This document shows positions 24,790-59,296 of a stretch of DNA of 64,000 nucleotides, piece by piece. The stretch is from Gemmatimonadota bacterium (GTDB taxonomy: Bacteria; Gemmatimonadota; Gemmatimonadetes; Gemmatimonadales; GWC2-71-9). The notes beneath the pieces are model-generated. The model did no database searches, was not told the DNA's origin, and was given only the letters and a program-made list of their open reading frames with translations. Position numbers and translations under genes: made by a program. The stretch covers positions 7,162 to 71,161 of the forward strand of contig JBDHKN010000006.1 of NCBI GenBank assembly GCA_039586365.1. Direction: 5' to 3'. Position 1 is the first letter of the stretch, and each line of letters begins with the position of its first letter.

Positions 24790-26103
24790 TTGAAGGAACA
24801 AAGCTCGAGCCACAAAGAACGTTCCCGCTCCGCAGTGCTATGTGAGCGTGCTGGCAAAGTGCTCGTGGGCGGAGTGAACAGTCCGGTGCGTGCCTTCCGA
24901 GCGGTGGGAGGCAAGCCGGTCTTCATAGACCGCATGGAGGGTGCGTGCGTCCACGACGTGGATGGAAACACCTATGTAGATCTAGTGGGCAGTTGGGGGC
25001 CCTCGGTTGTGGGGCACGCGCACGCGGACGTGGTTGAGGCGGTGCGAGAGGCGGCCGCACGGGGTCTGAGTTTTGGCGCTTGTTGTGCAGCGGAGGCTGA
25101 GTTGGCGGAACTCATCGTCGGGGCCGTGCCATCCATTGAGCTGGTCCGGTTCGTCAACAGCGGTACCGAAGCTACCATGAGTGCGATCCGCCTCGCACGG
25201 GCCGCCACGGGTAGGTCCAAGATCCTCAAGTTCGTGGGGTGCTACCATGGGCACGTCGACGGGCTGTTAGTGGCTGCCGGTTCGGGAGCGGCTACGTTTG
25301 GGGTGCCCGATTCGGCTGGTGTGCCTGCATCGTACACCCGTGAAACCCTACTGGCTCAATTCAATGACTTGAAGGCAGTAGAACGGGTCATGAGCCGGCA
25401 TGGCTCGGAGGTAGCCGCGATCTTGGTTGAGCCGGTGGCGGGGAATATGGGCTACGTGGAGCCGGTTCGCGGATTCTTGGGGGGGCTGCGCACACTGTGC
25501 GATGAACATGGCAGCCTGTTGATCTTCGACGAAGTGATGACCGGCTTCAGGGTCGCGTGGGGCGGTTATCAGAACTCTTGTGGCATCAATCCCAATTTGA
25601 CCTGCTTGGGCAAAGTCATTGGTGGTGGGATGCCGGTAGCAGCCTATGGTGGTGCGAAGGAACTCATGGAGCTGGTGAGTCCTCTGGGGCCAACCTATCA
25701 AGCCGGTACGCTGAGCGGCAGCCCCGTCGGCATGGCTGCCGGTATCGCGACTCTGAAGCTGTGCAAGGCGACCGGCTTCTACGATTCGCTACATGGCAAG
25801 TCCCTGCAACTTGCGCTGGGGCTCCAAGCAGCAGCAGCTGAGGCGGGTCTTACCGTGCAGACGGGTGCCACTGGAGGGATGTTGGGTATGGCTTTCCTGG
25901 ACCGGCCGGTGCGCAACTTCGCTGACGCGCAGGCCTGCAATCACGATCTGTTTGCTGCGTTCTTCCGAGCGATGCTGGACCGGGGCGTTTGGCTGCCACC
26001 CTCGGGATACGAAGCCATGTTCCTCTCCGCCGCGCACGACGACGACGCGATCGGGCGGATTCTCGACGCAGCAAGAGAGAGCTTCCGAATTCGACTGCCA
26101 TGA
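24790..26103 (+). CDS. hemL: Glutamate-1-semialdehyde 2,1-aminomutase
   Basis: GGVNSPVRAFRAVGG, SGTEATMSAIRLAR, DEVMTGFR and the GKVIGGG lysine motif. Start is uncertain: TTG 24790, 7 nt after GGAGG, or ATG 24766. Confidence 0.92.
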   Translation: MKEQSSSHKERSRSAVLCERAGKVLVGGVNSPVRAFRAVGGKPVFIDRMEGACVHDVDGNTYVDLVGSWGPSVVGHAHADVVEAVREAAARGLSFGACCAAEAELAELIVGAVPSIELVRFVNSGTEATMSAIRLARAATGRSKILKFVGCYHGHVDGLLVAAGSGAATFGVPDSAGVPASYTRETLLAQFNDLKAVERVMSRHGSEVAAILVEPVAGNMGYVEPVRGFLGGLRTLCDEHGSLLIFDEVMTGFRVAWGGYQNSCGINPNLTCLGKVIGGGMPVAAYGGAKELMELVSPLGPTYQAGTLSGSPVGMAAGIATLKLCKATGFYDSLHGKSLQLALGLQAAAAEAGLTVQTGATGGMLGMAFLDRPVRNFADAQACNHDLFAAFFRAMLDRGVWLPPSGYEAMFLSAAHDDDAIGRILDAARESFRIRLP

Positions 26104-26990
26104 ACTCCCTACGTGTGGGAACTCGTGGCAGCGATCTGGCGCTATGGCAGGCGAACTGGATCTGTGATCGGTTGCGCGATACGCACTCAGGTGTGGCGGC
26201 CGAGCTAGTTGTCATCAAGACCCACGGTGACGTGACTGCGGATGAGAGGTTCGGTCGGACCTGGCCTGTAGGAGCGTTCGTCAGGGCGTTGGAAACGGCC
26301 CTGCTCGACGAGAGGATCGATGTCGCGGTGCACAGCTGCAAAGACCTGCAGACCACTCAGACGAGCGGGCTGCGGATTGCGGCAACGCCGGTGCGGGAAG
26401 TCGCGAACGACGTGCTCCTAACCAGCACGGGCGTACGATTGGACAGCCTGCCTCCCCTCGCGCGCATCGGGACGAGCAGTCCGCGCCGGGCCGCCCAGAT
26501 ACTACAACTGGGGGACTTCGAGATCGTCCCTCTGCGGGGCAATGTTCCGACTCGTATAGCCAAGATGGAGCAGCAAGGTCTCGATGGGATCGTGCTGGCG
26601 GCGGCCGGGCTCAGGCGGTTGGGGATCGACTATCCCCACGCGATCGACCTCCCCACGGATAGCTTCGTTCCCGCGCCGGGCCAGGGTGCGTTGGCGGTTC
26701 AGGTGCGTGCAGGGAGTGAAGCCTCGGAGCTAGTGACGGTCCTGGAGGATCCGCCGACGCGCGCAGCCGTTACCGCCGAGCGGTGTCTCCTCCGCGAGAT
26801 CAACGCGGGCTGCCACACACCGGTCGGTGCGCTGGCCACGGTGGATGCCGGGACGATATCACTCCAGGCGCAGTTGTTCAGTGACGATTACAGGCGCTGC
26901 GTGGCAGGTAGCGAGTCGGGTATGATTCCCGAGGTCATCGGAGCAAGCTTAGCCCGCAGACTGATGGAAGAGCTACGGGGCCGGCGGTAG
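26100..26990 (+). CDS. hemC: Hydroxymethylbilane synthase (porphobilinogen deaminase)
   Basis: ATG 26100 (ATGA overlap with the hemL stop) gives MNSLRVGTRGSDLALWQANW, with IKTHGD, GTSSPRR, RGNVPTR and a GCHTPVGA cysteine motif. Confidence 0.93.
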   Translation: MNSLRVGTRGSDLALWQANWICDRLRDTHSGVAAELVVIKTHGDVTADERFGRTWPVGAFVRALETALLDERIDVAVHSCKDLQTTQTSGLRIAATPVREVANDVLLTSTGVRLDSLPPLARIGTSSPRRAAQILQLGDFEIVPLRGNVPTRIAKMEQQGLDGIVLAAAGLRRLGIDYPHAIDLPTDSFVPAPGQGALAVQVRAGSEASELVTVLEDPPTRAAVTAERCLLREINAGCHTPVGALATVDAGTISLQAQLFSDDYRRCVAGSESGMIPEVIGASLARRLMEELRGRR

Positions 26991-26997
26991 TAGCTGC

Positions 26998-28023
26998 TCA
27001 GCCGTGGGTTTCTTGCCACCAGCGGGCGTAGTCCAACGCTGCATAAGAGAATATCAGGTCTGCACCGGCGCGCGATATCCCCAAGAGCGCCTCTGTCATG
27101 CAGGCCCGGTAGTCGAGCCAACCCCTATCCGCCGCCGCTTTGATCATGGAGTATTCTCCGCTCACTTGGTATGCGGCGATTGGTAGTGCAGTACCTTTCC
27201 GGAGCCGGCTTATCACGTCGAGGTAGGGAAGAGCTGGTTTGACCATTAGGATGTCCGCACCCTCATCCTCGTCGAGCATGGCCTCGACTGACGCTTCGCG
27301 GGCGTTTGCCGGGTCAATCTGGTAAGTCTTTTTGTCCGTGGGGACGTTTGGGGCGGCAGCCGGGGCGGAATCGAGCGCCTCCCGAAATGGTCCGTAGTAC
27401 CCCGAGGCATACTTTGCGGTGTAACTCAGAATAGCCACGTCAAACGCCTCTGCCGCGTCTAGGGCAGCGCGGATGGCGGCGACCCGCCCATCCATCATGT
27501 CGGACGGAGCGACCATGTCTGCACCGGCTTCCGCATGCAGCACGGCCATCCTGGCCAACATATCTACGGTTTCATCGTTGAGTATTGTCCCATCTGGAGA
27601 GACCAGTCCGTCGTGTCCATGACTCGAATAGGGGTCAAGAGCGATATCAGTGACAATGTAGGCTTCGGGGATCGCTTGCTTCAGAGTCTGAACCGCTTGG
27701 CAGAGCAGGTTGTCCGGATTCACCGCCTCCTGCGCATCAGGTGTCTTGCGAGATGGATCGATGGCAGGGAACAGAGCGAAAGCACCTAGGCCCAGCGAAA
27801 GGGCCTCCTTACATCGCTTGATGATTAGATCTACCGACAGGCGGGCATGGCCAGGCATCGCTTCGATCGGCTGGGATATGTTCCGACCAGCTACTGTGAA
27901 CAGCGGCAGGACCAGGTGGTTGGGCCCGAGGTTGGCCTCCTGTACCAAGCCACGTATGACGGCGTTGCGTCGCAGTCGGCGGGGGCGACGCCACGGACGG
28001 GGAAGTTCGGACAGCGAATGCAT
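26998..28023 (-). CDS. hemB: Porphobilinogen synthase (delta-aminolevulinate dehydratase)
   Basis: 341 aa with RPRRLRRNAVIRGLVQE, VAPSDMMDGRV, YASGYYGPFREA, MVKPALPYLD and the active-site pattern. Confidence 0.95.
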   Translation of the reverse strand: MHSLSELPRPWRRPRRLRRNAVIRGLVQEANLGPNHLVLPLFTVAGRNISQPIEAMPGHARLSVDLIIKRCKEALSLGLGAFALFPAIDPSRKTPDAQEAVNPDNLLCQAVQTLKQAIPEAYIVTDIALDPYSSHGHDGLVSPDGTILNDETVDMLARMAVLHAEAGADMVAPSDMMDGRVAAIRAALDAAEAFDVAILSYTAKYASGYYGPFREALDSAPAAAPNVPTDKKTYQIDPANAREASVEAMLDEDEGADILMVKPALPYLDVISRLRKGTALPIAAYQVSGEYSMIKAAADRGWLDYRACMTEALLGISRAGADLIFSYAALDYARWWQETHG

Positions 28024-28150
28024 GCTACGTTCCTTTCGCCACTACAGTCAGTCAAGCTATCGCCTTCGAAAGTAATTGACCCACCGCCAAGCTCGAGCGA
28101 TAGGGGGGAGTCTGTCCGTTGTGAGCTGCAGCACACCAAGACCCGTAAAC

Positions 28151-28166
28151 GTGACAAAAATCTCGC
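28151..28166. promoter_or_regulatory. Rex-type operator box 1 (GTGA-N8-TCGC), abutting the -35 of the rex promoter
   Basis: GTGACAAAAATCTCGC. One of seven copies of the consensus cGTGAcAAAtATCTCACa, which fits the known Rex half-site pattern TGTGA-N8-TCACA. Confidence 0.55.
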
Positions 28167-28172
28167 AAGGCC

Positions 28173-28200
28173 TTGACTCGGGTCCGCCGAGCGCTAAAAT
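28173..28200 (+). promoter_or_regulatory. Sigma70-like promoter of rex
   Basis: TTGACT (28173-28178), 16 nt, TAAAAT (28195-28200), bracketed by Rex boxes 1 and 2. Confidence 0.6.
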
Positions 28201-28218
28201 GAGAAAAGTCGCACAAAC

Positions 28219-28234
28219 GTGACGAATATCTCGC
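28219..28234. promoter_or_regulatory. Rex-type operator box 2, in the rex leader
   Basis: GTGACGAATATCTCGC, 18 nt downstream of the -10 hexamer. Confidence 0.55.
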
Positions 28235-28278
28235 AAAGCGCCAGCGAAGGCAGTGTTCCGTCGCTGAGCGGAGGTGCT

Positions 28279-28914: not shown

Positions 28915-29016
28915 GCGGCCGTGGCGTCCCCCGGGGATTTCCCGAAAATAATGCCAAGGATTTCTGAAGGGTCGTGCTGCCGCATTGCCCTTGGCGCCCA
29001 GTCCCAATGGTAAATC

Positions 29017-29032
29017 GTGACGATAATCTCAC
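29017..29032. promoter_or_regulatory. Rex-type operator box 3
   Basis: GTGACGATAATCTCAC, GTGA-N8-TCAC. Confidence 0.55.
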
Positions 29033-29048
29033 ATACTCATGAGATATC

Positions 29049-29064
29049 GTGATAAATATCTCGT
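29049..29064. promoter_or_regulatory. Rex-type operator box 4
   Basis: GTGATAAATATCTCGT, 32 nt after box 3. It is embedded in the perfect inverted repeat GAGATAT-N8-ATATCTC (29041-29062). Confidence 0.5.
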
Positions 29065-29115
29065 AATCCTTCGCAATGCACTTGCCTCCGCCGGACCGGG
29101 CTGCCAGATTGAATC

Positions 29116-29131
29116 GTGACAAAAATCTCAC
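29116..29131. promoter_or_regulatory. Rex-type operator box 5
   Basis: GTGACAAAAATCTCAC, 67 nt after box 4. Confidence 0.55.
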
Positions 29132-29147
29132 ACTGAGCAGGTTTACC

Positions 29148-29163
29148 GTGACAAATATCTCAC
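29148..29163. promoter_or_regulatory. Rex-type operator box 6, abutting the -35 of the apr promoter
   Basis: GTGACAAATATCTCAC followed by AAGGCCTTGAC, the same junction as box 1 at the rex promoter. Confidence 0.55.
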
Positions 29164-29169
29164 AAGGCC

Positions 29170-29197
29170 TTGACGGGGGTGTTTCACGAGCTAATAT
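29170..29197 (+). promoter_or_regulatory. Sigma70-like promoter of aprBA (and possibly the downstream cluster)
   Basis: TTGACG (29170-29175), 16 nt, TAATAT (29192-29197). This implies a ~225-nt leader before the aprB ATG at 29430. Confidence 0.6.
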
Positions 29198-29215
29198 GAG
29201 CTTGAGCGTGAAATC

Positions 29216-29231
29216 GTGACAAAAATCTCAC
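29216..29231. promoter_or_regulatory. Rex-type operator box 7, just downstream of the apr -10
   Basis: GTGACAAAAATCTCAC, 18 nt after TAATAT. This is the same geometry as box 2. Confidence 0.55.
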
Positions 29232-29429
29232 AACCCAGGCGCAGTCGCTGCGCACCCGAATTGGACGTCTTTTGGTAGCGTGTCTGACGGGTAGAGCAGC
29301 TGTCGATGTGGTCCGCGCCGACTCTCTGTTGCTTGGCGCCTGTCGGCAGATGATGCCGGTGTGGATTTCCAATTGCAGGTTGGGTCGTATTCCCGGGATG
29401 CCCTATCTGAGTAGAAAGGAAGAAGGAAG

Positions 29430-29897
29430 ATGCCAAGTTTCGTAAACCCGGACAAATGTGACGGATGCAAGGCTCTCGACAAGACGGCCTGTCAGTTCAT
29501 TTGCCCGAACGACCTCATGGTCTTGAACAAGGATACCATGAAGGCCTTCAACCAGGATCCACAGATGTGCTGGGAGTGCTACAGCTGCGTGAAGATCTGT
29601 CCGACGCAGGCGATTGAGGTACGTGGGTACGCTGACTTCGTGCCGCTGGGAGCGAGTGTTACGGCGATGCGCAGTACCGAGGACATCATGTGGACGGTTC
29701 AGTTCCGCAGTAAGGAGATCAAGCCGAAGCGGTTCAAGTTTCCCCACCGTAGGGGTGTTGAGGAAGGCAAAGCACAGCCATTCGATCACTATCCGACGGG
29801 CGACGATGATATCAAGAGCCCGACCTTGATGTGTGAGCCAGCCGGACTGAATACCGATAGAGGTCCGGTGAAAATGGACAAGGTGCCGACGGTGTAG
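29430..29897 (+). CDS. aprB: Adenylylsulfate (APS) reductase beta subunit
   Basis: MPSFVNPDKCDGCKALDKTACQFICPNDLM...CWECYSCVKICPTQAI, two [4Fe-4S] motifs, plus the extended C-terminal tail typical of AprB. RBS GAAAGGAAGAAGGAAG. Confidence 0.95.
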   Translation: MPSFVNPDKCDGCKALDKTACQFICPNDLMVLNKDTMKAFNQDPQMCWECYSCVKICPTQAIEVRGYADFVPLGASVTAMRSTEDIMWTVQFRSKEIKPKRFKFPHRRGVEEGKAQPFDHYPTGDDDIKSPTLMCEPAGLNTDRGPVKMDKVPTV

Positions 29898-29961: not shown

Positions 29962-31854
29962 ATGCCGAAATTTGAAACCGTAACGGTTGAGACGGACCTG
30001 CTGATCTGCGGCGGCGGGATGGCCGCCTGCGGTGCAGCTGTGGAAGCGGCGTACTGGGCCAAAAGGCATGGGCTGAAGGTCACGGTGGTCGACAAGGCGG
30101 CGATGGACCGCTCTGGGGCTGTCGCGATGGGCCTCTCTGCCATCAACCAGTACGTGGACCTGAACAGCGGTAACAACACGCTGAACGATTACATCGACTA
30201 CGTCCGCAACGACCTCATGGGTATCACGCGTGAGGATCTGGTAGCGAGCATCGCACGTCACGTGGACTCGACTGTCCACCTCTTCGAGAAGTGGGGTCTG
30301 CCCATCTGGAAGGACCAGGACGGCAACTATGTCCACGAGGGTCGTTGGCAGTTGATGATCAATGGTGAGTCGTACAAAGTCATCGTTGCCGAGGCAGCCA
30401 AGAACGCCCTGGCTGAGGCCGGTGGGGAGTACTTCGAGCGCGTCTTCATAACCCACCCACTGATGGACGGTGACAAGTGCGTGGGTGCGATTGGCTTCAG
30501 CGTCAGAGAGAACAAGGTGTATGTCTTCAAGGCCAAGGCCACGTTGGTGGCCATGGGTGGAGCGGTGCACGTGTTCAAGCCGCGCTCCACTGGTGAGGGC
30601 TTCGGCCGTTCCTGGTATCCGCCGTTCAACTCCGGCGCCAGCGCCTTTTTCACAATCTATGCCGGTGCCGAGATGACCTGTCAGGAAGTCCGGTTCATTC
30701 CGGTGCGCTTCAAAGACGCGTACGGACCGGTCGGTGCGTGGTTCCTGCTATTCAAGTCTATCGCAACGAATGCTTACGGCGGCAACTACATGCAGGACAA
30801 CGCCGCAGAGCTCGACAAGTGGGAGCCCTACGGCAAGGTGAAGCCGCGTCCCGCCAACATCCGCAATTGGCTGATGATGTTGGATGTAATGGAAGGCAAG
30901 AGCCCCATCTACATGCAGACAGCCGATGCCATCAAGGCAATTGCCGACAAAGCACCGGACGAGAAGGCCGCTAAGAAGAAGCTGAAGGAGCTGGAAGCAG
31001 AAGCTTGGGAGGACTTCCTCGACATGACGATCTCGCAGGCGATTCTCTGGGCTGCAACGAATGTCGAGCCCGAAAGGAAGCCGTCCGAGATCATGGCTTG
31101 TGATCCCTACTTCATCGGCTCCCACTCCGGTGCGTCCGGGGCTTGGGTCTCTGGACCGGAAGACCTCCAGACTGCGGAGACCAAGGCTGAGTACTTCTGG
31201 GGCTATCCGCACATGACGACGGTCAAAGGGATGTTCGCCGCGGGTGACGCCTCGGGAGCTTCGAGCCACAAGTTCTCATCCGGCTCGCACGCCGAAGGCC
31301 GTATTGCCGCCAAGGGAGCCATCTCCTACATCGTCGACAACAACACCCCACCCAACGTGGACCAGAAGCAGGTCGACGCGTTGACAGAGGAGATCCTGAA
31401 GCCACTCGACACCTTTGAGCAGTTCAAGGGTGCCACGACTGATCCGAACATCAATCCCAACTACATCCGCCCAACGCAGTTCATGTACCGGCTGCAGAAG
31501 ATCATGGACGAGTATTCGGGTGGTGTGTCGAGTCAGTTCAAGACCAATGACAAGCTCCTCGAGAAGGGCATGGAGTTGCTGGGTTACCTCAAGGAAGATG
31601 CTGGTCAACTCGCGGCGGAGAACCTACACGAGCTGATGCGGTGCTGGGAGAACGTCCATCGGATGTTCCAGGCGGACGCGCACATGCGTTCCATTCTCTT
31701 TCGTGAGGAGACTCGTTGGCCAGGTTACTACTTCCGGGCTGACAAGCCAAGCATGGACGACAAGAATTGGCTCGCCTTCTGCAATTGTGTTTACAAGAAG
31801 GACACGGGCGAGTGGGAGATGATCAAGAGGCCTGTCAAGCGCATCACAGCGTAG
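29962..31854 (+). CDS. aprA: Adenylylsulfate (APS) reductase alpha subunit (FAD)
   Basis: 630 aa with N-terminal FAD fold DLLICGGGMAACGAA and AprA-specific blocks (RWQLMINGESYK, FAAGDASGASSHKFSSGSHAEGR, RWPGYYFRAD). Confidence 0.97.
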   Translation: MPKFETVTVETDLLICGGGMAACGAAVEAAYWAKRHGLKVTVVDKAAMDRSGAVAMGLSAINQYVDLNSGNNTLNDYIDYVRNDLMGITREDLVASIARHVDSTVHLFEKWGLPIWKDQDGNYVHEGRWQLMINGESYKVIVAEAAKNALAEAGGEYFERVFITHPLMDGDKCVGAIGFSVRENKVYVFKAKATLVAMGGAVHVFKPRSTGEGFGRSWYPPFNSGASAFFTIYAGAEMTCQEVRFIPVRFKDAYGPVGAWFLLFKSIATNAYGGNYMQDNAAELDKWEPYGKVKPRPANIRNWLMMLDVMEGKSPIYMQTADAIKAIADKAPDEKAAKKKLKELEAEAWEDFLDMTISQAILWAATNVEPERKPSEIMACDPYFIGSHSGASGAWVSGPEDLQTAETKAEYFWGYPHMTTVKGMFAAGDASGASSHKFSSGSHAEGRIAAKGAISYIVDNNTPPNVDQKQVDALTEEILKPLDTFEQFKGATTDPNINPNYIRPTQFMYRLQKIMDEYSGGVSSQFKTNDKLLEKGMELLGYLKEDAGQLAAENLHELMRCWENVHRMFQADAHMRSILFREETRWPGYYFRADKPSMDDKNWLAFCNCVYKKDTGEWEMIKRPVKRITA

Positions 31855-32037
31855 GCTAAATAGATCTGCCAGGATTCTTGGGCGTCGCGGTGCGGCGTCC
31901 GAGGGTCCTGACTCCTGAATCAACTTCGATTTTCCTTCGTGCAAGTCCGAAGGCGTCTTTACAGACTGTGGGGCCGTGAACGGATGATCGCGGTTCCCGG
32001 ACCAATCCGAAGGACCGTTGAGCAACCGAGGAATCCC

Positions 32038-51993: not shown

Positions 51994-52812
51994 GTGGCGA
52001 TCATTACCATCAGTCGAGGAAGCAAGAGTGGCGGGCAGGAAATGGCGGAATGTCTGGCCGCGCAACTGCAGTATCGCATCGTTGGACGAGAGATTGTACA
52101 GGAAGCGGCTACCAGGCTCGACGTTTCAGAGGAGGCCTTGAGCCACCAGATGGAGCACACACCCAAGCTGTGGGATAGGCATGCTGCGACGCGGCGGCTA
52201 TATGTGGCGGCCGTGCAAGCGGCCCTCGCCGAGTATGTGGCCGAGGGAGATCTGGTGTACCATGGCTTGGCGGGACAACTACTCCTGAGGGGCCTACCGG
52301 CTGTGCTGCGGGTGCGGCTCATCGCACCGAGAGAGAGGCGGGTCCGAACGCTGGTGGAGACGCGTCAGATGGATGAGGCCTCGGCCGAAGAGTTCATTCA
52401 GCATGTCGATGGAGCACGTGCTCGCTGGGTCAAAATGATGTACGGCGAAAACATCGAGGACCCGGCACTTTATGACATGGTGGTAAACCTGGAGACCATG
52501 TCTGTGCCCGGTGCCTGTGCTGCACTCGCGACTGTGGCAAAGCGGCCGGACTTTGCGGTTACTGGTGAGGTAAAGGCGTGTCTACGGGACTTTCGCTTGG
52601 CGTCCAACGTCAAAGTCGCGCTAGCGAGAGCACGTGAGACACGGCCTCACATTCTGGACGTGTGGGTCAGAGGGGGCGTCGTCGAGATATCCGGCAGCGT
52701 TCCCGTCCTCAAAACAGGCCGGATGGGGGATCGTATCAGCGAGGTAGCACGTTCTGTCCCCGGCGTTGAGGAAGTCCGTATGAAGCTGCAGTGGTACGAC
52801 CCGTATCCTTAG
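51994..52812 (+). CDS. Cytidylate-kinase-like family protein, paralog 2, with a C-terminal BON-like domain
   Basis: 272 aa. IITISRGSKSGGQEMAECLAAQLQY, with about half of positions identical to paralog 1 by eye over ~190 aa. The extra C-terminus VKVALARA...VWVRGGVVEISGSVP...VARSVPGVEEVRMKL resembles a BON domain. Confidence 0.65.
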   Translation: MAIITISRGSKSGGQEMAECLAAQLQYRIVGREIVQEAATRLDVSEEALSHQMEHTPKLWDRHAATRRLYVAAVQAALAEYVAEGDLVYHGLAGQLLLRGLPAVLRVRLIAPRERRVRTLVETRQMDEASAEEFIQHVDGARARWVKMMYGENIEDPALYDMVVNLETMSVPGACAALATVAKRPDFAVTGEVKACLRDFRLASNVKVALARARETRPHILDVWVRGGVVEISGSVPVLKTGRMGDRISEVARSVPGVEEVRMKLQWYDPYP

Positions 52813-52851: not shown

Positions 52852-53922
52852 GTGTCCGACTCTACTGAACAGCCTATGCCTACTATCGCGAGCACACCTG
52901 CCACAACAGGGCAGGTGCTCATAGATCCGGGAACAGCGGAAGGTCCTCAGCGGTTGCGCGTACTTCCTGCGGTGATCCGCCTAGCGGTGTTGCTCTTTGT
53001 CATCATGTTGCTCAACCCGACGGAGGTGCACGCGTGCCAGGAAGCAGCAGTGGCGGCCGACACCAGTATGACCTCATGGTGGGTGTGGCCGCTTGTTCTC
53101 TTCCTAATCACGTTTGTCATGGGGATCCTGGCTGCTCTAGGTGGTGTTGGAGGGGGAGTGCTCTTCGTGCCAATTGTCAGCGGTTTCTTCCCATTTCACC
53201 TCGACTTCGTTCGCGGCTGCGGACTGTTAGTGGCGCTGAGCGGTGCACTTGCCGCGGGTCCGGGTTTCTTGAAGATGAACTTGGCCAGTCTGCGCTTGGC
53301 CATGCCTGTGGCGTTGATTGCATCCACTTGTGCCATTATCGGCGCCATGATCGGGCTCGCGCTCCCGACGAACGTTGTGCAGACGGCGCTAGGTGCCACC
53401 ATCCTGGGGATAGTCGCCCTAATGATGGCAGCGAAGAAGTCAGAGTTCCCCGAAGTCGCCGAAGCGGACCGCCTCTCTTCAGCGCTCAAGATCTATGGTG
53501 TGTATACTGAGGCCAGTCTGGGCCGGGCGATAGACTGGAAAGTGCACCGGACGGTATACGGTCTACTTCTATTCATCATCATCGGTGTCATGGCAGGCAT
53601 GTTTGGGCTCGGCGCGGGTTGGGCCAACGTTCCGGTTCTGAACCTGGTTATGGGTGCCCCGCTCAAGATCAGCGTGGCCACCAGCAAGTTTCTCCTCTCC
53701 ATAACGGATACGTCGGCGGCTTGGATCTATGTTAACAATGGTGCTGTGATCCCGATGATGGTTGTCCCCTCGCTGGTCGGCATCATGCTGGGCTCTTTCA
53801 TCGGCGTGCGAATTTTGCGGGTCGCCAAGCCGGCGTTTGTTCGCAAGATGGTGATCGGACTGTTGCTTTTCGCCGGTGCCAAAGCGATCACCAAAGGACT
53901 AGACCTCCCGTTCATCGTCTAG
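52852..53922 (+). CDS. TauE/SafE (TSUP, DUF81) family anion permease
   Basis: 356 aa. LAALGGVGGGVLFVPI and a repeated 4-TM-type architecture typical of TSUP sulfite/sulfonate exporters. Has a long N-terminal extension. Confidence 0.8.
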   Translation: MSDSTEQPMPTIASTPATTGQVLIDPGTAEGPQRLRVLPAVIRLAVLLFVIMLLNPTEVHACQEAAVAADTSMTSWWVWPLVLFLITFVMGILAALGGVGGGVLFVPIVSGFFPFHLDFVRGCGLLVALSGALAAGPGFLKMNLASLRLAMPVALIASTCAIIGAMIGLALPTNVVQTALGATILGIVALMMAAKKSEFPEVAEADRLSSALKIYGVYTEASLGRAIDWKVHRTVYGLLLFIIIGVMAGMFGLGAGWANVPVLNLVMGAPLKISVATSKFLLSITDTSAAWIYVNNGAVIPMMVVPSLVGIMLGSFIGVRILRVAKPAFVRKMVIGLLLFAGAKAITKGLDLPFIV

Positions 53923-54437: not shown

Positions 54438-54911
54438 ATGCGGTTCCTTCCGATAGGACTTGACGTCCGTGGCAGGGTTTGCCTGGTTGTTGGCGGTGGG
54501 AGTGTAGGGACTCGCAAGGCAGTGACACTTGCTCAGGCGGGTGCAGCCGTAACGGTAGTCTCGCCTGTCGTCACTGCTGAACTTGCCGAGCAGATACGCG
54601 CTGGCCGCATCAATTGGGTGGAGGGAAAGTTCCGAGACGGGCATCTGTCTGGTGTCTTCCTCGCGGTTGCTGCTACGGATGACGATGCCTTGAATGCCAT
54701 AGTCGTCAGGGTCGCGGGGGAGCGTGGTGCCCTGGTCTGCGATGCCTCGTCAGCCGAGCGCTCTCAAGTGATCTTCGGCGCTGTGCTGGAGAGTGATGAA
54801 GCCACCGTTGCCGTCTTCACGGATGGCCGAAATCCAGCACAGGCTAGGCGGACACGCGACCAGATTGCAGGTTTCATTGCCGCGGAACGCAAGGTTGGGC
54901 CTCAGTCCTGA
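54438..54911 (+). CDS. sirC: Precorrin-2 dehydrogenase / sirohydrochlorin ferrochelatase (SirC/CysG N-terminal type)
   Basis: MRFLPIGLDVRGRVCLVVGGGSVGTRKAVTLAQAGAAVTVVSP, a Rossmann motif characteristic of siroheme synthase N-domains. Alternative starts are 54375 and 54414. Confidence 0.8.
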   Translation: MRFLPIGLDVRGRVCLVVGGGSVGTRKAVTLAQAGAAVTVVSPVVTAELAEQIRAGRINWVEGKFRDGHLSGVFLAVAATDDDALNAIVVRVAGERGALVCDASSAERSQVIFGAVLESDEATVAVFTDGRNPAQARRTRDQIAGFIAAERKVGPQS

Positions 54912-55097: not shown

Positions 55098-57344
55098 ATG
55101 TCCACGTTCACCACAGACAGCTCGGCAACATCACCCATGCACCAGGGGCGTAGCTCGCTAGTGCCGGGGCGGCGGGGAGTGTTGTTGCTCAATCTGGGAA
55201 TGCCTGGCCGAAGTGACCCTTCTTCCGTGCGCCAGTTCCTCTTGCAGTTTCTTGACGATCCTCTCGTCATCGGCTCGCTCCCGGAACTCAGGTGGCTCCG
55301 ACGGGGTCTGCGCAGTTGGATGCTCCGCTTGCGGGCAGCGCGCCTGGTGGATTCCTGCCGCACATACAGGGAGGATAGCGGGTCTCAGCCGAACATCATT
55401 GCGGAACAGGCTGCTGCGCTGGGTGCTGTTCTTCCAGAGCACTGGCGGGTATTCACGGGTACACGCTATGGGGAACCATCGATCTCTGCAGTGCTGAAGC
55501 AGATGCAGGACGAGGGTATCGAGCGAATCGTGGCAGTACCGCTGTATCCGCAATTCGACCAGGCGACCACAGGCACGATCATGCGCGAACTGTACCGTGT
55601 CGTGGGTGAAACGGCACGAAGTATGAGCCTTGCCACTCGTGCTGCGTGGCACGACGACAGCGGCTACGTGAGTGCCCAAGCGAGATTGATTGCGGAATGG
55701 GCACAGTCCCATGATCTGTGGCCGGATGACTCGCACTTGCTCTTCACGGCCTACGGTCCACCCGGTTCCGGCGTGCAGCGCGAAGATACGTACGCGCCAC
55801 AGATGAGGAGAACGGTCGATCTGGTGGCTCAACGGTTAGGCTGGTCTGCGGATCTAGTGTCATTAGCCTTCCAGGGACGGTTCGGTATGGAGCCGGGCCC
55901 CGCATGTAGGCCCATCGCCGGCGACGAGCTGGAGCGACTTGCTCGTTTGGGTGTCAAGAAGGTGCTCGTCTGCCACCTCACCTTTGCCGAGCAGGGTGTG
56001 GGTGCCGTGCGGCAGATAGATGGGCAGTCCCAGAAGTTGTTCGCAGCAAGCGGAGGTCGTCTCCACAATTGCCCGACTCTCTACACACAGAGACCGTTTA
56101 TCTCCGCGTTGCGAAGCTTGGTAATAGGAGGTCCTAGGCCGGCTTCGGGCCGAGGGGCTAAACCTCTTCTGGTGCCCAGACTCGACACGGGTCTGACGGA
56201 CGACGATCCGAAGGCTCTGGTGATGATCGGGACGTCGCTGGCAAGGCGGCTGCGGTCCGGGCGCGGTCCGCATCTGAAGCACAACCACCCTGGCGTGTTC
56301 GCCAAGGTACGCAAGTCACGGAAGACCTTGCTGGGATTCCTGGATTGGGTCCGTGAGGAGGGGATTGTCAAGGAGGCGTTCGTCTGGAACACGTGCCAGC
56401 GGCTCGAGTTCTACGGATGGCTCGCGGATCCGGATGACTCCGTCGACCGCGAGTGGGTCGTCGCGACAGTGCGGAGCAGACTGTTCGAGACCGAACCAGA
56501 AGACCTCCATGTCAACGTGTTGTTTGGCGTCAACGCCTGGCATCACCTAATGCGCACAGCGTCTGGATTGAATAGCGCGCTGCCAGGGGACACGGACGTG
56601 GTGGCACAACTGCAAACGTCCTGCCAGATAGCCGAACGTGCGAGGGTTGCGGGCCCAATCGCAGCTCGACTGGTAAGGAGCGCAGTGGAGCTGACCCACA
56701 AAGTACGCGCTGAAACTGCGTGGGGCCAGTTCAGCTCTGGGTACTGCCTCGCTGCTCTGTCCCACGTTCGTGCAGTGAGCGGCGTCGATCTAGACGCGTG
56801 TCGCCACCTCGTCATTGGTGGCTCAGCCACGTCACGTTCAGTGCTGTCCACACTGTCTCAGGAGTTCGCTGTCCCCCAACATAGAATGACGTTGGCTTAT
56901 CGAGACCACCATGGTCAGATGAAGCTATTGCGGGCGGCTCTCGGCCACGGCAAACGCCAGCGCGTGCATTCGTATTCAGAGGAAAGTGTCCTGCGCGCGA
57001 TCGCTGACGCAGACTTTGTGTTTTTCGGTATCGATCACCCACAACCGGTATTGGACGCTGAGGTGATCGGTGGTTTGCGGGATTTCACGAAGCGACCTCT
57101 GACGATCGTCGATTTCAATAGCTATGGTTCAATGCGCTACTCGAGTATCCCTGATGGTGTGAGAGTGTGGACCGAAGCAGAGTTGGATCGAGCAGTTGCG
57201 GCGTATGCCGACCTGATGTGCTCTCGGGCCGAGTTCTCCGCGGCCGTAGAAGCCATGGAAACGTGGATAGAAGACCGCCTACCGGTGTCCGATGTGGATG
57301 CTGACTCCAAGACTGAAATCAGTGCAGCCAAGAGTACTATATGA
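55098..57344 (+). CDS. Fusion protein: ferrochelatase-like N-domain plus glutamyl-tRNA reductase (HemA)-like C-domain
   Basis: Residues ~25-330 carry HemH-family blocks (LLLNLGMPGRSDPSSVRQFLLQFLDDPLVI, VAVPLYPQFDQATTG). Residues ~340-748 carry HemA blocks (FVWNTCQRLEFY vs STCNRTEIY; HLMRTASGLNSALPGDTDVVAQ vs [22 protein letters not shown]). It is a single uninterrupted 748-codon ORF. Confidence 0.7.
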   Translation: MSTFTTDSSATSPMHQGRSSLVPGRRGVLLLNLGMPGRSDPSSVRQFLLQFLDDPLVIGSLPELRWLRRGLRSWMLRLRAARLVDSCRTYREDSGSQPNIIAEQAAALGAVLPEHWRVFTGTRYGEPSISAVLKQMQDEGIERIVAVPLYPQFDQATTGTIMRELYRVVGETARSMSLATRAAWHDDSGYVSAQARLIAEWAQSHDLWPDDSHLLFTAYGPPGSGVQREDTYAPQMRRTVDLVAQRLGWSADLVSLAFQGRFGMEPGPACRPIAGDELERLARLGVKKVLVCHLTFAEQGVGAVRQIDGQSQKLFAASGGRLHNCPTLYTQRPFISALRSLVIGGPRPASGRGAKPLLVPRLDTGLTDDDPKALVMIGTSLARRLRSGRGPHLKHNHPGVFAKVRKSRKTLLGFLDWVREEGIVKEAFVWNTCQRLEFYGWLADPDDSVDREWVVATVRSRLFETEPEDLHVNVLFGVNAWHHLMRTASGLNSALPGDTDVVAQLQTSCQIAERARVAGPIAARLVRSAVELTHKVRAETAWGQFSSGYCLAALSHVRAVSGVDLDACRHLVIGGSATSRSVLSTLSQEFAVPQHRMTLAYRDHHGQMKLLRAALGHGKRQRVHSYSEESVLRAIADADFVFFGIDHPQPVLDAEVIGGLRDFTKRPLTIVDFNSYGSMRYSSIPDGVRVWTEAELDRAVAAYADLMCSRAEFSAAVEAMETWIEDRLPVSDVDADSKTEISAAKSTI

Positions 57345-57387: not shown

Positions 57388-57744
57388 ATGCTGATCTTGA
57401 TTGCACACGGCAGCCGGCGGTCAGAATGGAGAGCGTCTGCAGAGGGTCTGGTCAAATCGCTGCAAACGGACATAGGTCGCGACGCTGTACAGCTCGCTTA
57501 CATGGATTGTACACCGCCGACGCTCATGGAAGTAGTATCCAAAGCGGTACAGCAAGGAATCAAACGAATTCGAGTGCTGCCACTATTTCTAACAGCCGAA
57601 GGACACGTGACCCGTGATATTCACCCTCTTGTGGAGGAGGCACGTGAGTCATATGCCGATGTTGTGTTGGAGCTGCTACCACCAGTTGGCCAGCATCCGA
57701 TGTTCCTGGAACTACTGAAGACAATTGCCATCCGGGAGCCGTGA
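57388..57744 (+). CDS. cbiX: Short CbiX-type sirohydrochlorin chelatase
   Basis: 118 aa. MLILIAHGSRRSEW and VLPLFLTAEGHV (catalytic-His regions), with the length of CbiX(S). Confidence 0.8.
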   Translation: MLILIAHGSRRSEWRASAEGLVKSLQTDIGRDAVQLAYMDCTPPTLMEVVSKAVQQGIKRIRVLPLFLTAEGHVTRDIHPLVEEARESYADVVLELLPPVGQHPMFLELLKTIAIREP

Positions 57745-57748
57745 ATAC

Positions 57749-59296
57749 ATGACGACCGACGGAAGCAAACGGCCACCTGGTATCGTCTATCTAGTGGGTG
57801 CCGGTCCTGGGGATCCCGGTCTAATCACGCTGCGCGCTGTTGAGTGTCTTGGACGGGCCGATGTGGTCATATACGATTATCTCGTCAACCCGGTCCTAGT
57901 CAGGCACGCCGCGGCTGCTGCGGAACTCGTCTGTCTTGGTCGCCCAACTACAGGACGCACTGTCTCCCAGGCAGAGATCAACCAACTAATGCTGGAGGCG
58001 GCTCAGGACGGCAAGATAGTCGTGCGGTTGAAGGGTGGGGATCCCTCGGTATTTGGCCGTGGGGCCGACGAGACAGGAGCCCTGCGGGAGGCAGGAATCC
58101 CCTTCGAGGTTATTCCGGGCATCACAGCTGGCCTAGCGGTCGGAGCCTACTGCGAAATCCCAATTACCCATCACGAGGATGCATCAGCTATCGCGTTGAT
58201 AACGGGTCGGGAACGTGACGAGAAAGGGGAGTCTGCCATTGATCACGCTGCGCTGGCCCGCTTCCCTGGCACACTCGTCTTCTACATGGGAGTCGAAAAG
58301 GTGACTCAGTGGAGCCAAGGCTTGATCGGACACGGAAAGCCACCCGAGACTCCCGTTGCAGTCGTTCGGTGGTGCACGCGTGCCCAGCAGCAAGAGATCC
58401 GCTGCACGCTGGGTACGGTTGCCGATACCATTAGGGACCACGCGCTGCGTCCACCGGCACTGTTCGTAGTAGGCAAAGCGGTGGACCGCGCGCCTGTGCG
58501 CTCCTGGTTCACAGAGCGACCGCTGTTCGGGCAGCGAATTCTCGTACCGGGATCGCAGACAACGTCTGACAGACTGCGCGACAGACTTGCAGAACTCGGG
58601 GCGGATGCGATCACGCAGCCGGCGATTCGGATTAGCGAACCGGCTGACTGGGCAGCCGTGGATGATGCACTGGACAAGCTTGGCCAATACGATTGGCTGG
58701 TGTTCTCGAGTGGAAACGGCGTTGACTACTTGCTCAGAAGAATTGAATACCGGGGTGGGGATGTGCGCTGGCTAGGACGCATCAAGCTTGCGGCTATGGG
58801 CTCGGGCACTGCCGAGCGGTTGGCCCACTATCACCTCAAAGCAGATCTGGTCCCTGCGCAGTTCGTGGCGGAATCCCTGGCGGGTACACTTGTGGGAGAA
58901 GCTGAACGCAGGCGATTTCTGCTGGCCCGGGCTAGCAGGGGTCGGGAAGTGCTGGCAATGGAGCTGAGAGAGGCTGGGGCCCACGTCGATCAGATTGTTG
59001 TGTACGACAGTGTTGATGTTGAGGAACCCGACCCTGACGTAGCCGCTCAGCTCACGGCTGGGGCGATCCATTGGATCACAGTCACGAGTTCGGCCGTAGC
59101 CCGCTCCCTGGTGAACCTCTACGGTGACGACCTTGCAGCGGCGAGAATCGCCAGCATCGGTCCAGTGACCTCTGGTACACTACGCGATTTGGGTCACGAA
59201 CCTTCAGTCGAGGCCACGCCACAATCGATCGAGGGTCTGGTGGAGGCGATTCAGCGTTTGTCGACTGTCGACCGACGACTGACGATGCACGATTGA
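57749..59296 (+). CDS. cobA-hemD: Bifunctional uroporphyrinogen-III C-methyltransferase / uroporphyrinogen-III synthase
   Basis: N-half: VYLVGAGPGDPGLITLRAVECLGRADVVIYD and RLKGGDPSVFGR (SUMT). C-half of ~250 aa with a HemD-like pattern (ILVPGSQ...WLVFSSGNGV...WITVTSS). Confidence 0.9.
   Translation: MTTDGSKRPPGIVYLVGAGPGDPGLITLRAVECLGRADVVIYDYLVNPVLVRHAAAAAELVCLGRPTTGRTVSQAEINQLMLEAAQDGKIVVRLKGGDPSVFGRGADETGALREAGIPFEVIPGITAGLAVGAYCEIPITHHEDASAIALITGRERDEKGESAIDHAALARFPGTLVFYMGVEKVTQWSQGLIGHGKPPETPVAVVRWCTRAQQQEIRCTLGTVADTIRDHALRPPALFVVGKAVDRAPVRSWFTERPLFGQRILVPGSQTTSDRLRDRLAELGADAITQPAIRISEPADWAAVDDALDKLGQYDWLVFSSGNGVDYLLRRIEYRGGDVRWLGRIKLAAMGSGTAERLAHYHLKADLVPAQFVAESLAGTLVGEAERRRFLLARASRGREVLAMELREAGAHVDQIVVYDSVDVEEPDPDVAAQLTAGAIHWITVTSSAVARSLVNLYGDDLAAARIASIGPVTSGTLRDLGHEPSVEATPQSIEGLVEAIQRLSTVDRRLTMHD

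Follow-up and report, generated by a model that had tools for sequence, protein, structure and literature searches.

A conserved block of sulfate-respiration and siroheme genes in a Gemmatimonadota contig

The window, a 64,000-nt stretch of DNA from a Gemmatimonadota bacterium, carries the full sulfate-reduction gene set together with siroheme genes in one co-directional block, which is very probably the sulfate-respiration supercluster native to, and vertically maintained in, a lineage of uncultured marine-sediment Gemmatimonadota. The dsrAB clade of this lineage was first seen on fosmids from the Wadden Sea and Hydrate Ridge. By ORF coordinates, 29 + strand genes follow one another from rex (28219) to cobA-hemD (59296), in line with the ~30 consecutive co-directional ORFs of the first-pass annotation. 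The order is rex, aprBA, two accessory genes, qmoABC, sat, dsrC, dsrT-MKJOP and dsrAB, followed by a divergent dsrD, a type 2 dsrL, dsrN, two cytidylate-kinase-like genes and tauE, and finally by a small membrane protein gene, sirC, a ferrochelatase/GluTR-like fusion, cbiX and cobA-hemD. The close spacing described earlier was also recovered, since apart from 515 nt ahead of aprB the widest gaps inside the block are ~183-186 nt (aprA/ogr-like gene and sirC/fusion). Gene identities were checked against NCBIfam and Pfam models, and the genes of the block and its surroundings are as follows.

24820-26103, +: hemL (glutamate-1-semialdehyde aminomutase); NCBIfam TIGR00713, 565.8 bits, cut-off 527
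26097-26990, +: hemC (hydroxymethylbilane synthase); TIGR00212, 277 bits, cut-off 164; Pfam match
26998-28023, -: hemB (porphobilinogen synthase), divergent from rex; NF006762, 457 bits
28219-28914, +: rex (redox-sensing repressor); NF003994, 207.9 bits, cut-off 130; true start uncertain
29430-29897, +: aprB; TIGR02060, 186 bits, cut-off 136
29962-31854, +: aprA; TIGR02061, 878 bits, cut-off 642
32038-32322, +: Ogr/Delta-like zinc-finger protein, 94 aa (94-95 aa in relatives); PF04606, 31.6 bits; ATG at 32038, ORF opens at 31939
32319-33209, +: CxxCxxCC protein (PF03692); Pfam, position between aprA and qmoA conserved by synteny
33206-34474, +: qmoA, HdrA-like; 378 bits to NF040770; position and synteny
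34479-36722, +: qmoB, HdrA-like, C-terminus MvhD/FlpD-like
36740-37911, +: qmoC, split; NF038018, 283.9 bits, below cut-off 300, match beginning at profile position 57
37926-39158, +: sat (sulfate adenylyltransferase); NF003166, 522 bits, cut-off 387
39325-39642, +: dsrC; TIGR03342, 123 bits; both C-terminal cysteines, C93 and C104
39776-40309, +: dsrT, immediately ahead of dsrM; PF14361 RsbRD_N, 63.7 bits
40350-45370, +: dsrMKJOP (dsrM 40350-41339; dsrK 41344-42987; dsrJ 42980-43360; dsrO 43364-44167; dsrP 44210-45370); five NCBIfam equivalogs, each above cut-off
45414-46640, +: dsrA; TIGR02064, 573 bits
46703-47779, +: dsrB; TIGR02066, 494 bits
47790-48035, +: divergent dsrD; profile-profile comparison and conserved place after dsrB
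48148-49824, +: dsrL, type 2; NF009410, 577 bits; YRR motif; domain matches
49829-51238, +: dsrN (siroheme amidase, CobB family); NF002204, 440 bits; place after dsrL
51251-51904 and 51994-52812, +: two Cytidylate_kin2-family genes; PF13189, 126 bits each; the second with a BON domain
52852-53922, +: tauE/safE-family permease; PF01925, 120 bits
53942-54388, +: 148-aa membrane protein, paired with the tauE/safE permease in relatives
54438-54911, +: sirC/dsrV (precorrin-2 dehydrogenase); TIGR01470, 103 bits, cut-off 62
55098-57344, +: ferrochelatase-like/GluTR-like fusion; PF00762, 186 bits; PF05201, 67.5 bits
57388-57744, +: small cbiX (sirohydrochlorin chelatase); PF01903, 83 bits
57746-59296, +: cobA-hemD fusion (uroporphyrinogen-III methyltransferase and synthase; dsrW-like); NF004790, 282 bits; HemD models
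59363-60220, -: DVU0298-family HEAT-repeat protein; NF045662, 168.6 bits, cut-off 75
60134-61585, +: YeiH-family putative sulfate exporter, a conserved neighbour; PF03601, 161 bits; TIGR00698, 81 bits, below cut-off
61650-63350 and 63272-63982, -: DsrK-like and NarI/DsrM-like paralogue pair; NF045796, 327.5 bits, below cut-off 400; PF02665

Scores lie above the curated cut-off for Rex, AprB, AprA, Sat, DsrC, DsrM, DsrK, DsrJ, DsrO, DsrP, DsrA, DsrB and DsrN (CobB family) and for SirC (CysG N-terminal domain), CbiX, CobA+HemD, HemL, HemC and HemB. The families proposed in the first-pass annotation were borne out, but four genes (two Cytidylate_kin2, Ogr/Delta zinc-finger and CxxCxxCC) fall outside its categories, qmoC is split, and related genes go on beyond 59296 to ~64 kb; hemL, hemC and hemB do lie upstream as it stated, hemB on the minus strand. 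The dsrD product had no match in Pfam or PDB sequence searches, and its profile-profile comparison (hhalign) with a Pfam-confirmed DsrD gave 93.4% probability and an E of 2.5e-7. The fusion protein scores 76.9 bits against hemA TIGR01035, under the cut-off of 209.55. This GluTR-like fusion belongs to a small family found only within these clusters, possibly a new observation.

From the established roles of these families, we infer the enzyme roles and the direction of the pathway. Sulfate would be activated to APS by Sat, APS would be reduced to sulfite by AprBA using quinone-pool electrons delivered by QmoABC, and sulfite would be reduced onto DsrC by DsrAB, aided by DsrD and with DsrL-2 as NADPH-linked partner, the resulting DsrC trisulfide being reduced by DsrMKJOP with release of sulfide. 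For cofactor supply, hydroxymethylbilane would come from HemL, HemB and HemC and precorrin-2 from CobA-HemD, with SirC (DsrV) predicted to oxidize precorrin-2 to sirohydrochlorin, CbiX to insert iron to give siroheme, and DsrN to amidate the latter; the TauE and YeiH-type permeases may carry sulfite or sulfate. Alignment with four relatives (A1), together with the relatives’ N-termini, revealed an 85-nt frameshifting deletion in qmoC between 36812 and 36813, leaving a stub ORF (36740-36844) and a main ORF (36844-37911) whose stop and start overlap as TAATG, against a QmoC length of 413-425 aa in relatives. The first [4Fe-4S] motif of qmoC is lost through this deletion; either the pathway as encoded in the window may be impaired, or a local error may be present in the contig.

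What the analysis shows directly are the identities and order of the genes, their conservation in relatives, the base composition and the motif statistics. Judged by SecY, which is 82-94% identical to proteins labelled, by organism, only Gemmatimonadota, the host is a member of this phylum. Eight species-representative MAG loci with Gemmatimonadota or Planctomycetota labels share the gene order that begins with the Ogr-like gene, directly downstream of aprA, and ends with dsrN, and ~10 further, shorter contigs hold part of it, L007 and L008 beginning inside aprA. Metagenome contigs and a 1.88-Mb contig extend the shared order through the siroheme genes: the right-end order dsrN-cmk-cmk/BON-tauE-p148-sirC-fusion-cbiX-cobA/hemD-HEAT(-)-yeiH is found in L081 at 83-98% identity and, whole or in part, in L088, L092, L096 and L102, and the left-end junction hemB(-)-rex-aprBA is present in L104, the 1.88-Mb contig. 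The Cytidylate_kin2 pair is kept after dsrN in L004, L014, L081, L088 and L102, and the HEAT-repeat gene adjoins cobA-hemD in L081, L089 and L092 too. That the block is a chimeric contig uniting separate loci is highly improbable, as all junctions tested recur in independent assemblies of different projects (L102/L104 at 1.88 Mb, JGI L081, L088, L092, L096, L107, L108 and the eight GTDB representative MAGs) and composition is uniform, even though the DsrK and AprB sequences of the window have no exact match on record and the deletion in qmoC is odd.

The compositional comparison proposed in the first-pass annotation gave a GC content of 57.5% for the block versus 58.4% and 55.7% for the flanks, with a tetranucleotide r of 0.90. 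Its statement that mobility markers are absent was upheld by scans, which gave no tRNA or Rfam match and no long direct repeats bounding the block; the flank ORFs that were scanned included neither an integrase nor a transposase. Given flank-like composition and no mobility markers found, the block does not resemble a mobile island. A transfer of the full cassette between phyla as a ‘metabolic island’, with Gemmatimonadota as recipient or donor, is conceivable but the less favoured account. Proteins of the cluster resemble those of Planctomycetota-labelled MAGs almost as closely as those of other Gemmatimonadota: DsrK is 79-85% identical to Planctomycetota-labelled MAGs versus 83-89% to other Gemmatimonadota, DsrC is up to 92% identical to Planctomycetota-labelled MAGs with an identical ogr-to-dsrN order, and AprA/DsrA matches at 81-92% are labelled Gemmatimonadales, Planctomycetota, Latescibacteria and Phycisphaerae. 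For SecY, matches within that identity range bear the Gemmatimonadota label only. In crude NJ trees the Gemmatimonadota sequences share a single clade with those of Planctomycetota, and concomitant transfer was proposed by Mussmann 2005, as relayed in PMC2702500 and PMC4411801. However, the window bears no trace of a recent arrival, the Gemmatimonadota DsrAB form one group in the same crude trees, consistent with a long period of vertical inheritance following any transfer, and cross-phylum transfer of Gemmatimonadota DsrAB is without evidence according to PMC11316326. Binning errors may affect MAG taxonomic labels, and sat has been replaced in some relatives (44-47% vs 66-86% identity), so that the unit is a mosaic and not a fixed cassette.

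The direction of the pathway cannot be read from gene content, and reductive-type sets with DsrL have also been proposed to run in the reverse or disproportionating direction (PMC6018796; PMC6018805). An oxidative or disproportionating use of the same genes, from sulfide or sulfur to sulfate, is nevertheless unlikely here. It would agree with the presence of dsrL, long held to be oxidizer-specific and discussed in Acidobacteria as allowing reversal (PMC6018796), with the sulfite and sulfate exporter annotations of TauE and YeiH, and with the report that genomic features alone cannot separate sulfur-disproportionating organisms from sulfite reducers (PMC6018805). The block, however, carries reductive-type markers, namely a DsrD-like protein, DsrT, the two DsrC cysteines and a DsrL with the YRR motif, the criterion for type 2 (PMC7596348); no DsrEFH-like ORF was found in the block and no dsrEFH, sox or sqr genes in the window, and related Gemmatimonadota MAGs come mainly from deep, sulfate-rich sediment layers (PMC11316326).

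The block also carries putative regulatory elements, as listed below.

28147-28235, +: rex promoter module, two copies of the operator-like motif (28147-28167 and 28215-28235) on either side of a promoter-like site (28173-28200); repeat families D1 and D4
29013-29232, +: operator-like array upstream of aprB, five motif copies (29013, 29045, 29112, 29144, 29212), the last two flanking a promoter-like site at 29170-29197
31870-31909, +: hairpin with a 19-bp stem after aprA; the 84-nt interval that contains it has a predicted fold of -35.5 kcal/mol, z = -4.4

Rex and aprB share a duplicated promoter module with copies of an operator-like motif on both sides. This motif forms a seven-copy family (D1), against 0.01 expected, that occurs only in these two promoter regions and, in relatives, upstream of aprB; the arrangement is possibly a new observation. 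The five aprB-upstream copies are matches at <=3 mismatches versus 0.01 expected, and the module also occurs upstream of aprB in relatives L104 and L105. This layout points to Rex, or else the Ogr-like protein, as a candidate redox-responsive repressor. The motif is 19 bp long with half-sites GTGA...TCAC spaced 8 nt, rather than 6, and the canonical Rex box (TTGTGAANNNNTTCACAA) was not found anywhere in the block; promoter and terminator consensus scans gave no enrichment over shuffles. Strong hairpins lie 3' of aprA, dsrC, dsrD and cobA-hemD, that of aprA being a likely transcript boundary or stabilizer, and the block probably comprises several transcription units, not a single operon.

The novelty implied for this arrangement in the first-pass annotation, to be abandoned if the order proved common in characterised lineages, fails because a search of other genomes found the same ogr-to-dsrN order in the eight MAG loci and because such clustering has been published since 2005; the lineages concerned are uncultured and hence characterised in the genomic sense only. 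Mussmann 2005, as cited in PMC2702500, described clustered sulfate-respiration genes on fosmids of uncultured marine prokaryotes, a clade placed in Gemmatimonadetes by Baker 2015 (PMC4411801). Subsequent reports include the dsr pathway in a single region (Anantharaman 2018; PMC6018805), the siroheme genes dsrV/dsrW (Hausmann 2018; PMC6018796), the supercluster of Ca. Thermonerobacter (Thiel 2019; PMC6338057) and gene clusters of marine Gemmatimonadota in a 2024 paper (PMC11316326). The gene block is real, and its arrangement has been in print for this lineage since the fosmid work.

From 28219 to 59296, ORF listing and translation combined with NCBIfam and Pfam scans recovered an unbroken run of 29 genes on the + strand. 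Related genes carry on past cobA-hemD, so the functional neighbourhood can be taken as ~24.8-64 kb. The genes, in order, are:

28219 onwards, + strand, first part: rex, aprB, aprA, an Ogr/Delta-type zinc-finger gene (ogr), a CxxCxxCC-domain gene (CxxC), qmoA, qmoB, qmoC, sat and dsrC
+ strand, middle part: dsrT, dsrMKJOP, dsrA, dsrB, a small ORF in the dsrD position, dsrL and dsrN
+ strand, last part, to 59296: two Cytidylate_kin2-family genes (cmk; the second with a BON domain), a TauE/SafE permease (tauE), a 148-aa membrane protein (p148), sirC, a 748-aa fusion, a small cbiX and cobA-hemD
Downstream of cobA-hemD, minus strand: a DVU0298-family HEAT-repeat protein
Downstream of cobA-hemD: a YeiH-family putative sulfate exporter
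Downstream of cobA-hemD, minus strand: a DsrK-like/NarI-like pair

The core enzymes are all above the curated NCBIfam cut-offs, with Sat, AprB, AprA, DsrA, DsrB and DsrMKJOP each present and matching their curated family models. The first-pass annotation had described a whole pathway in one co-directional, tightly spaced block with hem genes directly upstream. The spacing was borne out, as internal gaps are at most ~186 nt with the sole exception of 515 nt before aprB, and so was the gene content, but the word whole needs qualifying, since qmoC is possibly impaired or affected by a local sequence error. Likewise, hemL and hemC do lie upstream on the + strand, whereas hemB, although adjacent, is on the minus strand and divergent from rex. 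The block is real and native-looking; the observation is confirmed with these corrections, and its interpretation is partly supported.

To place the block among its relatives, 185,579 species-representative genomes were scanned for DsrK, giving 80 loci onto which the window proteins were mapped by tblastn (loci and contigs of relatives, from species-representative MAGs or JGI metagenomes, carry L numbers below). Exact-sequence look-ups with DsrK and AprB of the window gave no identical entry. Of the 18 closest loci (DsrK 79-89%), nine come from MAGs labelled Gemmatimonadota, eight from MAGs labelled Planctomycetota and one from an unclassified MAG, and they show the same order as the window wherever the contig is long enough; eight of them (L001, L006, L012, L013, L014, L015, L018 and L022) span ogr-CxxC-qmoABC-sat-dsrC-dsrT-dsrMKJOP-dsrAB-dsrD-dsrL-dsrN. 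The Gemmatimonadota MAG loci L001, L004, L006, L013, L014 and L022 share the order from ogr to dsrN at 63-89% protein identity. A second group, labelled Myxococcota, Acidobacteriota or Fibrobacteraceae, is arranged as dsrAB-D-L-N-C-T-MKJOP; several of its loci continue with sirC and cobA-hemD, and three have a divergent aprBA upstream. Two Thermodesulfobacteriota loci read dsrAB-N-C-T-MKJOP-aprBA-CxxC-CxxC-qmoAB. About 40 loci of lower identity, mostly labelled as Desulfobacterota-type (Syntrophaceae, Smithellaceae, Desulfomonilaceae, 'Deltaproteobacteria'), show, within 10 kb of dsrK, nothing above 40% identity to aprBA, qmoAB or sat.

These MAG loci end short of rex and aprB, and conservation of the right end was followed by a metagenome scan queried with the fusion protein. 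The JGI contig L081 (83-98% protein identity) reads dsrAB-D-L-N-cmk-cmk/BON-tauE-p148-sirC-fusion-cbiX-cobA/hemD-HEAT(-)-yeiH, and this module order recurs, whole or in part, in L088, L092, L096, L087 and L090 and on a 1.88-Mb contig (L102). The same 1.88-Mb contig also carries the left end (L104) as hemB(-)-rex-aprBA-ogr-CxxC-qmoABC-sat-(OsmC)-dsrC-dsrT-dsrM. The position of the tauE-sirC-fusion module varies, being downstream of dsrN or, in L105, L107 and L108, upstream of aprBA. Together, the conserved ends and the variant placement of this module indicate a supercluster that is modular and rearranging, yet contiguous. The contiguous order, put forward as novel in the first-pass annotation, is therefore common in relatives, in lineages known only as MAGs, and is not unusual for this lineage; a chimeric contig is excluded because the supercluster is contiguous in independent assemblies that carry the same junctions.

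Several genes within this order show patterns of their own. The identity of sat (37926-39158) is bimodal, at 66-86% in L001, L002, L004, L006 and L014 and 44-53% in L005, L009-L013, L015, L018 and L022, with gene order otherwise conserved, a pattern suggesting that sat was replaced in situ in some lineages; sat is missing from this position in L007 and L008, and several relatives have an OsmC-family gene between sat and dsrC. The Cytidylate_kin2 (PF13189) genes are tandem paralogues (51251-52812), the second with its BON domain at the C-terminus, directly after dsrN, where the pair is also kept in L004, L014, L081, L088 and L102; we know of no role for such genes in dsr clusters. The DVU0298-family HEAT-repeat protein (NCBIfam; 59363-60220, minus strand) adjoins cobA-hemD, and other phyla have weak homologues in their dsr clusters, placed between dsrN and dsrC (L029, L037, L038 and L053), which suggests a conserved, uncharacterised link of this protein to Dsr.

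The composition of the block matches that of its flanks, in agreement with the first-pass view that nothing marks a mobile island. GC content is 57.5% in the block, 58.4% in the left flank and 55.7% in the right flank, tetranucleotide usage of the block correlates with that of the left flank at r = 0.90, and no 5-kb chunk is an outlier. Pfam and NCBIfam scans of all large flank ORFs found no integrase, transposase or conjugation genes at the boundaries, a tRNA scan found no tRNA genes, Rfam gave no non-coding RNA matches, and direct and inverted repeat searches returned across the block, apart from the operator-like family described below, only short two-copy pairs at chance level. At the left end, SecY of the ribosomal-protein operon is 82-94% identical to proteins labelled only Gemmatimonadota or Gemmatimonadales. 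Ribosomal protein L30 (1540-1950) has an apparent lysine/alanine-rich N-terminal extension of ~75 aa with a weak match to the histone-H1-like HC2 family; alternatively, its start may be over-called. The window shows no sign of recent acquisition.

Transfer of the cluster between phyla at some point is a rival, or complementary, reading. Cluster proteins of Planctomycetota-labelled MAGs are almost as close to those of the window as are the proteins of other Gemmatimonadota; matches of AprA and DsrA at 81-92% bear labels from at least three phyla, and SecY matches in the same identity band are Gemmatimonadota only. In neighbour-joining (NJ) trees, which serve as a rough indication only, having no bootstraps and misplacing the partial loci L005 and L011, DsrK and DsrAB of both phyla fall in one clade. 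Inter-phylum transfer is also what Mussmann and colleagues proposed, as relayed in passages of citing papers, whereas a 2024 survey (PMC11316326) states that Gemmatimonadota DsrAB were not exchanged across phyla. Because MAG labels may be wrong and the window itself bears no mark of recent arrival, confidence in transfer is moderate at most. With that reservation, Gemmatimonadota and Planctomycetota clusters, at 79-92% identity and in nearly identical order, may be the record of whole-cassette transfer, which would directly support the 'metabolic island' idea of 2005.

The qualification attached to qmoC comes from alignment with four relatives, which places an 85-nt deletion between 36812 and 36813, in the region from the stub to the start of the main ORF (36740-36846). 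The deletion causes a frameshift and loss of the first CxxCxxCxxxC ([4Fe-4S]) motif, which is kept in 12/12 relatives whose QmoC N-terminus was recovered, and leaves a 34-codon stub ORF, its stop overlapping the start codon of the main ORF as TAATG. The QmoC match scores 283.9 bits against an NCBIfam cut-off of 300 and begins at profile position 57; in every relative examined the protein has 413-425 aa. QmoA and QmoB look intact, and the window lacks an intact QmoABC, in which QmoC would have two [4Fe-4S] motifs besides its haem-b membrane domain. In relatives, GATCTG microhomology is found at both deletion ends, which fits an origin by slippage, and the deletion is either a real slippage event or a sequence or assembly error. 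If real, it would amount to a natural experiment on whether QmoC can do without its first Fe-S cluster.

The block carries several markers of the reductive type. The ORF at 47790-48035, which occupies the conserved place of dsrD after dsrB, had no match to Pfam DsrD (PF08679) or to a solved structure in Pfam and PDB sequence searches. When the ORF after dsrB was gathered from many related loci, those of Desulfobacterota and Moorella proved to be bona fide PF08679 DsrD, and the window-type family aligned with eight Pfam-confirmed DsrD sequences at 93.4% probability (E 2.5e-7; hhalign), a profile-profile match that identifies it as a divergent DsrD. DsrL carries the YRR motif (in NVTILYRRTRKEMPA) of type 2, which defines DsrL-2, the type accompanying reductive DsrAB (PMC7596348). 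DsrC ends in GACKVAGLPKPTGCV, with both conserved C-terminal cysteines (C93 and C104), and matches TIGR03342 at 123 bits. Within the 64-kb window, no DsrE-, DsrF- or DsrH-like ORF is found in the block, every ORF of which was assigned. In an NJ tree built with no bootstraps and no oxidative-type sequences, DsrAB of the window groups with DsrD-carrying clusters, Desulfobacterota and Moorella. With DsrD, DsrT and DsrL-2 present and dsrEFH lacking, the markers speak for reduction or disproportionation, although direction (reduction versus oxidation or disproportionation) is not readable from genes alone.

Given the established roles of these enzyme families, Sat would make APS, AprBA would reduce it with electrons supplied by QmoABC, and DsrAB would reduce sulfite onto DsrC, with DsrD as a probable modulator of the DsrAB step and DsrL-2 as the likely NADPH-linked partner in sulfite reduction; DsrMKJOP would regenerate DsrC. 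The cofactor line would run through HemL, HemB, HemC, HemD, CobA, SirC and CbiX to siroheme, and then by way of DsrN to siroheme amide.

The siroheme set is complete and includes uroporphyrinogen-III methyltransferase (NF004790, 282 bits), precorrin-2 dehydrogenase (TIGR01470, 103 bits) and, as the cbiX product, a sirohydrochlorin chelatase (PF01903, 83 bits), which would insert iron. The gene between sirC and cbiX (55098-57344) encodes a 748-aa fusion of a ferrochelatase-like and a glutamyl-tRNA reductase (GluTR)-like half, with relatives in L081-L097, L102, L103, L105 and L107, and adjoins sirC in sulfate-reduction clusters in every context seen. The GluTR-like half scores 76.9 bits with TIGR01035, below the hemA cut-off of 209.55, and canonical GluTRs score ~60-77 bits against it, compared with 133-450 bits for family members. 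It is strongly conserved across 20 relatives, with the signatures W(N/S)TCQRxE(F/L)YGW, GLNSxLPGDxDVxAQLQ and VIGGS(A/T)TSRS: the nucleophilic cysteine is kept, TCNR having become an invariant TCQR, the GE.QIL.Q motif has become GD.DV.AQ, and the glycine-rich loop at the GxGxxG NADPH site is VIGGS(A/T)TSRS in all family members. The ferrochelatase-like half (PF00762, 186 bits against a cut-off of 27) is poorly conserved. Aligned with 4klr, it has Tyr in place of the His and GVG across the H341/E343 region; the equivalents of human H263 and E343, the catalytic His and Glu of ferrochelatase, are thereby lost, and neither position is constant within the family. When 1.84 billion representatives were searched exhaustively, only 64 50%-identity clusters reached E <= 1e-30, most members being 600-800 aa long with the match in the C-terminal half. 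The fusion could be a new enzyme, or a regulator that senses tetrapyrroles and adjusts the supply of siroheme or siroheme amide; whether for sensing or for modifying tetrapyrroles, such a role is speculative. As a small, cluster-specific GluTR-like family, it is a candidate for a role in siroheme supply.

A 19-21 nt motif with the consensus AATCGTGACAAAAATCTCACA is present in seven copies in the window, all on the + strand and confined to two intergenic regions, before rex and before aprB (28147-28235; 29013-29232), the latter holding a five-copy array. A consensus search returned five copies at <=3 mismatches against 0.01 expected, a degenerate regex found all seven, and a repeat search arrived at the same family on its own, its members spaced 68, 798, 32, 67, 32 and 68 nt apart. 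The regions upstream of rex and aprB are a duplicated module of ~90 bp, with 68 bp from motif to motif in both, laid out as motif, CAAGGCC, TTGAC (-35), 16 nt, TAAWAT (-10), ~17 nt and motif; a core promoter enclosed in this way by operator-like copies is suggestive of repression. Among relatives, the motif also precedes aprB in L104 (two copies ~67 nt apart around TTGACG), L105 (two copies) and L106 (one, degenerate), and it is found essentially nowhere else in ~1.7 Mb of the loci compared.

The half-sites, GTGA-N8-TCAC, resemble Rex and CRP boxes but are 8 nt apart, not 6. A Rex protein is present (NF003994, 207.9 bits against a cut-off of 130); the canonical Rex operator, TTGTGAANNNNTTCACAA (consensus from PMC6391272), is absent from the block, and its two window matches at <=3 mismatches lie outside the block and are at chance level. 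Rex, acting as its own regulator, would be the simplest candidate to bind the motif, and the Ogr-like zinc-finger protein would be the alternative. The duplicated module and array could thus form an operator at which either a non-canonical Rex (GTGA-N8-TCAC) or the Ogr-like protein acts. Were either regulator confirmed, expression of APS reductase would be tied to NADH/NAD+ in non-deltaproteobacterial sulfate reducers, and the promoter/operator module is testable for redox control of this enzyme.

Neither sigma-70 nor intrinsic-terminator consensus scans exceeded the counts in shuffles, and they were used only to place the two promoter-like sites beside the motif; transcripts are predicted to start near 28207 and 29204. 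Strong hairpins follow four genes, namely aprA (31870-31909; 19-bp stem, z -4.4), dsrC (39650-39745; z -3.2), dsrD (48062-48110; z -2.3) and cobA-hemD (after 59296; z -3.8), a canonical U-tract being absent from all four; the block is probably transcribed in several units. Farther downstream, the yeiH-like and dsrK-like genes converge on a perfect inverted repeat (61605-61641; 17 nt, 3-nt loop) that probably terminates transcription in both directions.

As a whole, the block is an instance of an arrangement already described and adds nothing to the literature since 2005; it is a clean, almost complete example of the clusters that make uncultured marine Gemmatimonadota, with the related Planctomycetota clusters, candidate sulfate reducers. 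It is conceivable, if rather doubtful, that the redox operator, the fusion enzyme or sensor and the cassette transfer between Gemmatimonadota and Planctomycetota are undescribed, and further work might be worthwhile only on the operator array, the fusion family and the deletion in qmoC. Besides their clustered sulfate-reduction genes, the fosmids of Mussmann and colleagues reportedly carry genes that make the prosthetic group of sulfite reductase.

According to a passage in PMC2702500, DNA fragments of uncultured prokaryotes with clustered sulfate-reduction genes were reported, and a 'metabolic island' discussed, by Mussmann et al. 2005 (J Bacteriol 187:7126), and PMC7596348 places dsrL-related genes on these fragments. 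As described in later papers, the fosmids resemble the window in their uncultured marine or estuarine sediment hosts, clustered genes and dsrL-related genes, and differ in that the window carries a broken qmoC. Baker et al. 2015 (PMC4411801), citing Mussmann for transfer, placed dsrAB of the Gemmatimonadetes bin SG8-17 in the fosmid clade DSR-J, so that the host phylum is Gemmatimonadota here too; AprA of the window matches 'Gemmatimonas sp. SG8_38_2' (90%) and 'Phycisphaerae bacterium SG8_4' (88%), whose SG8 bin prefix is that of the same study. Marine Gemmatimonadota sulfate-reduction gene clusters (DsrAB, SAT, AprAB and QmoABC) are mentioned only briefly in PMC11316326, whose passages on them do not describe the siroheme module, promoter motif or fusion protein. 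[quoted passage not shown] Ca. Thermonerobacter thiotrophicus has, on a single contig, sat-aprBA-hyp-hyp-qmoC, the two hypothetical genes being conserved, then dsrAB-D-N-hyp-L-C-MK (Thiel 2019, PMC6338057). [quoted passage not shown] Desulfobacterota-type loci have a canonical DsrD (PF08679) and no dsrL, and in Desulfovibrio and other Desulfobacterota the modules are scattered, unlike in the window (PMC2702500), although the enzyme families and sub-operons (aprBA-qmoABC, dsrABD and dsrMKJOP) are the same.
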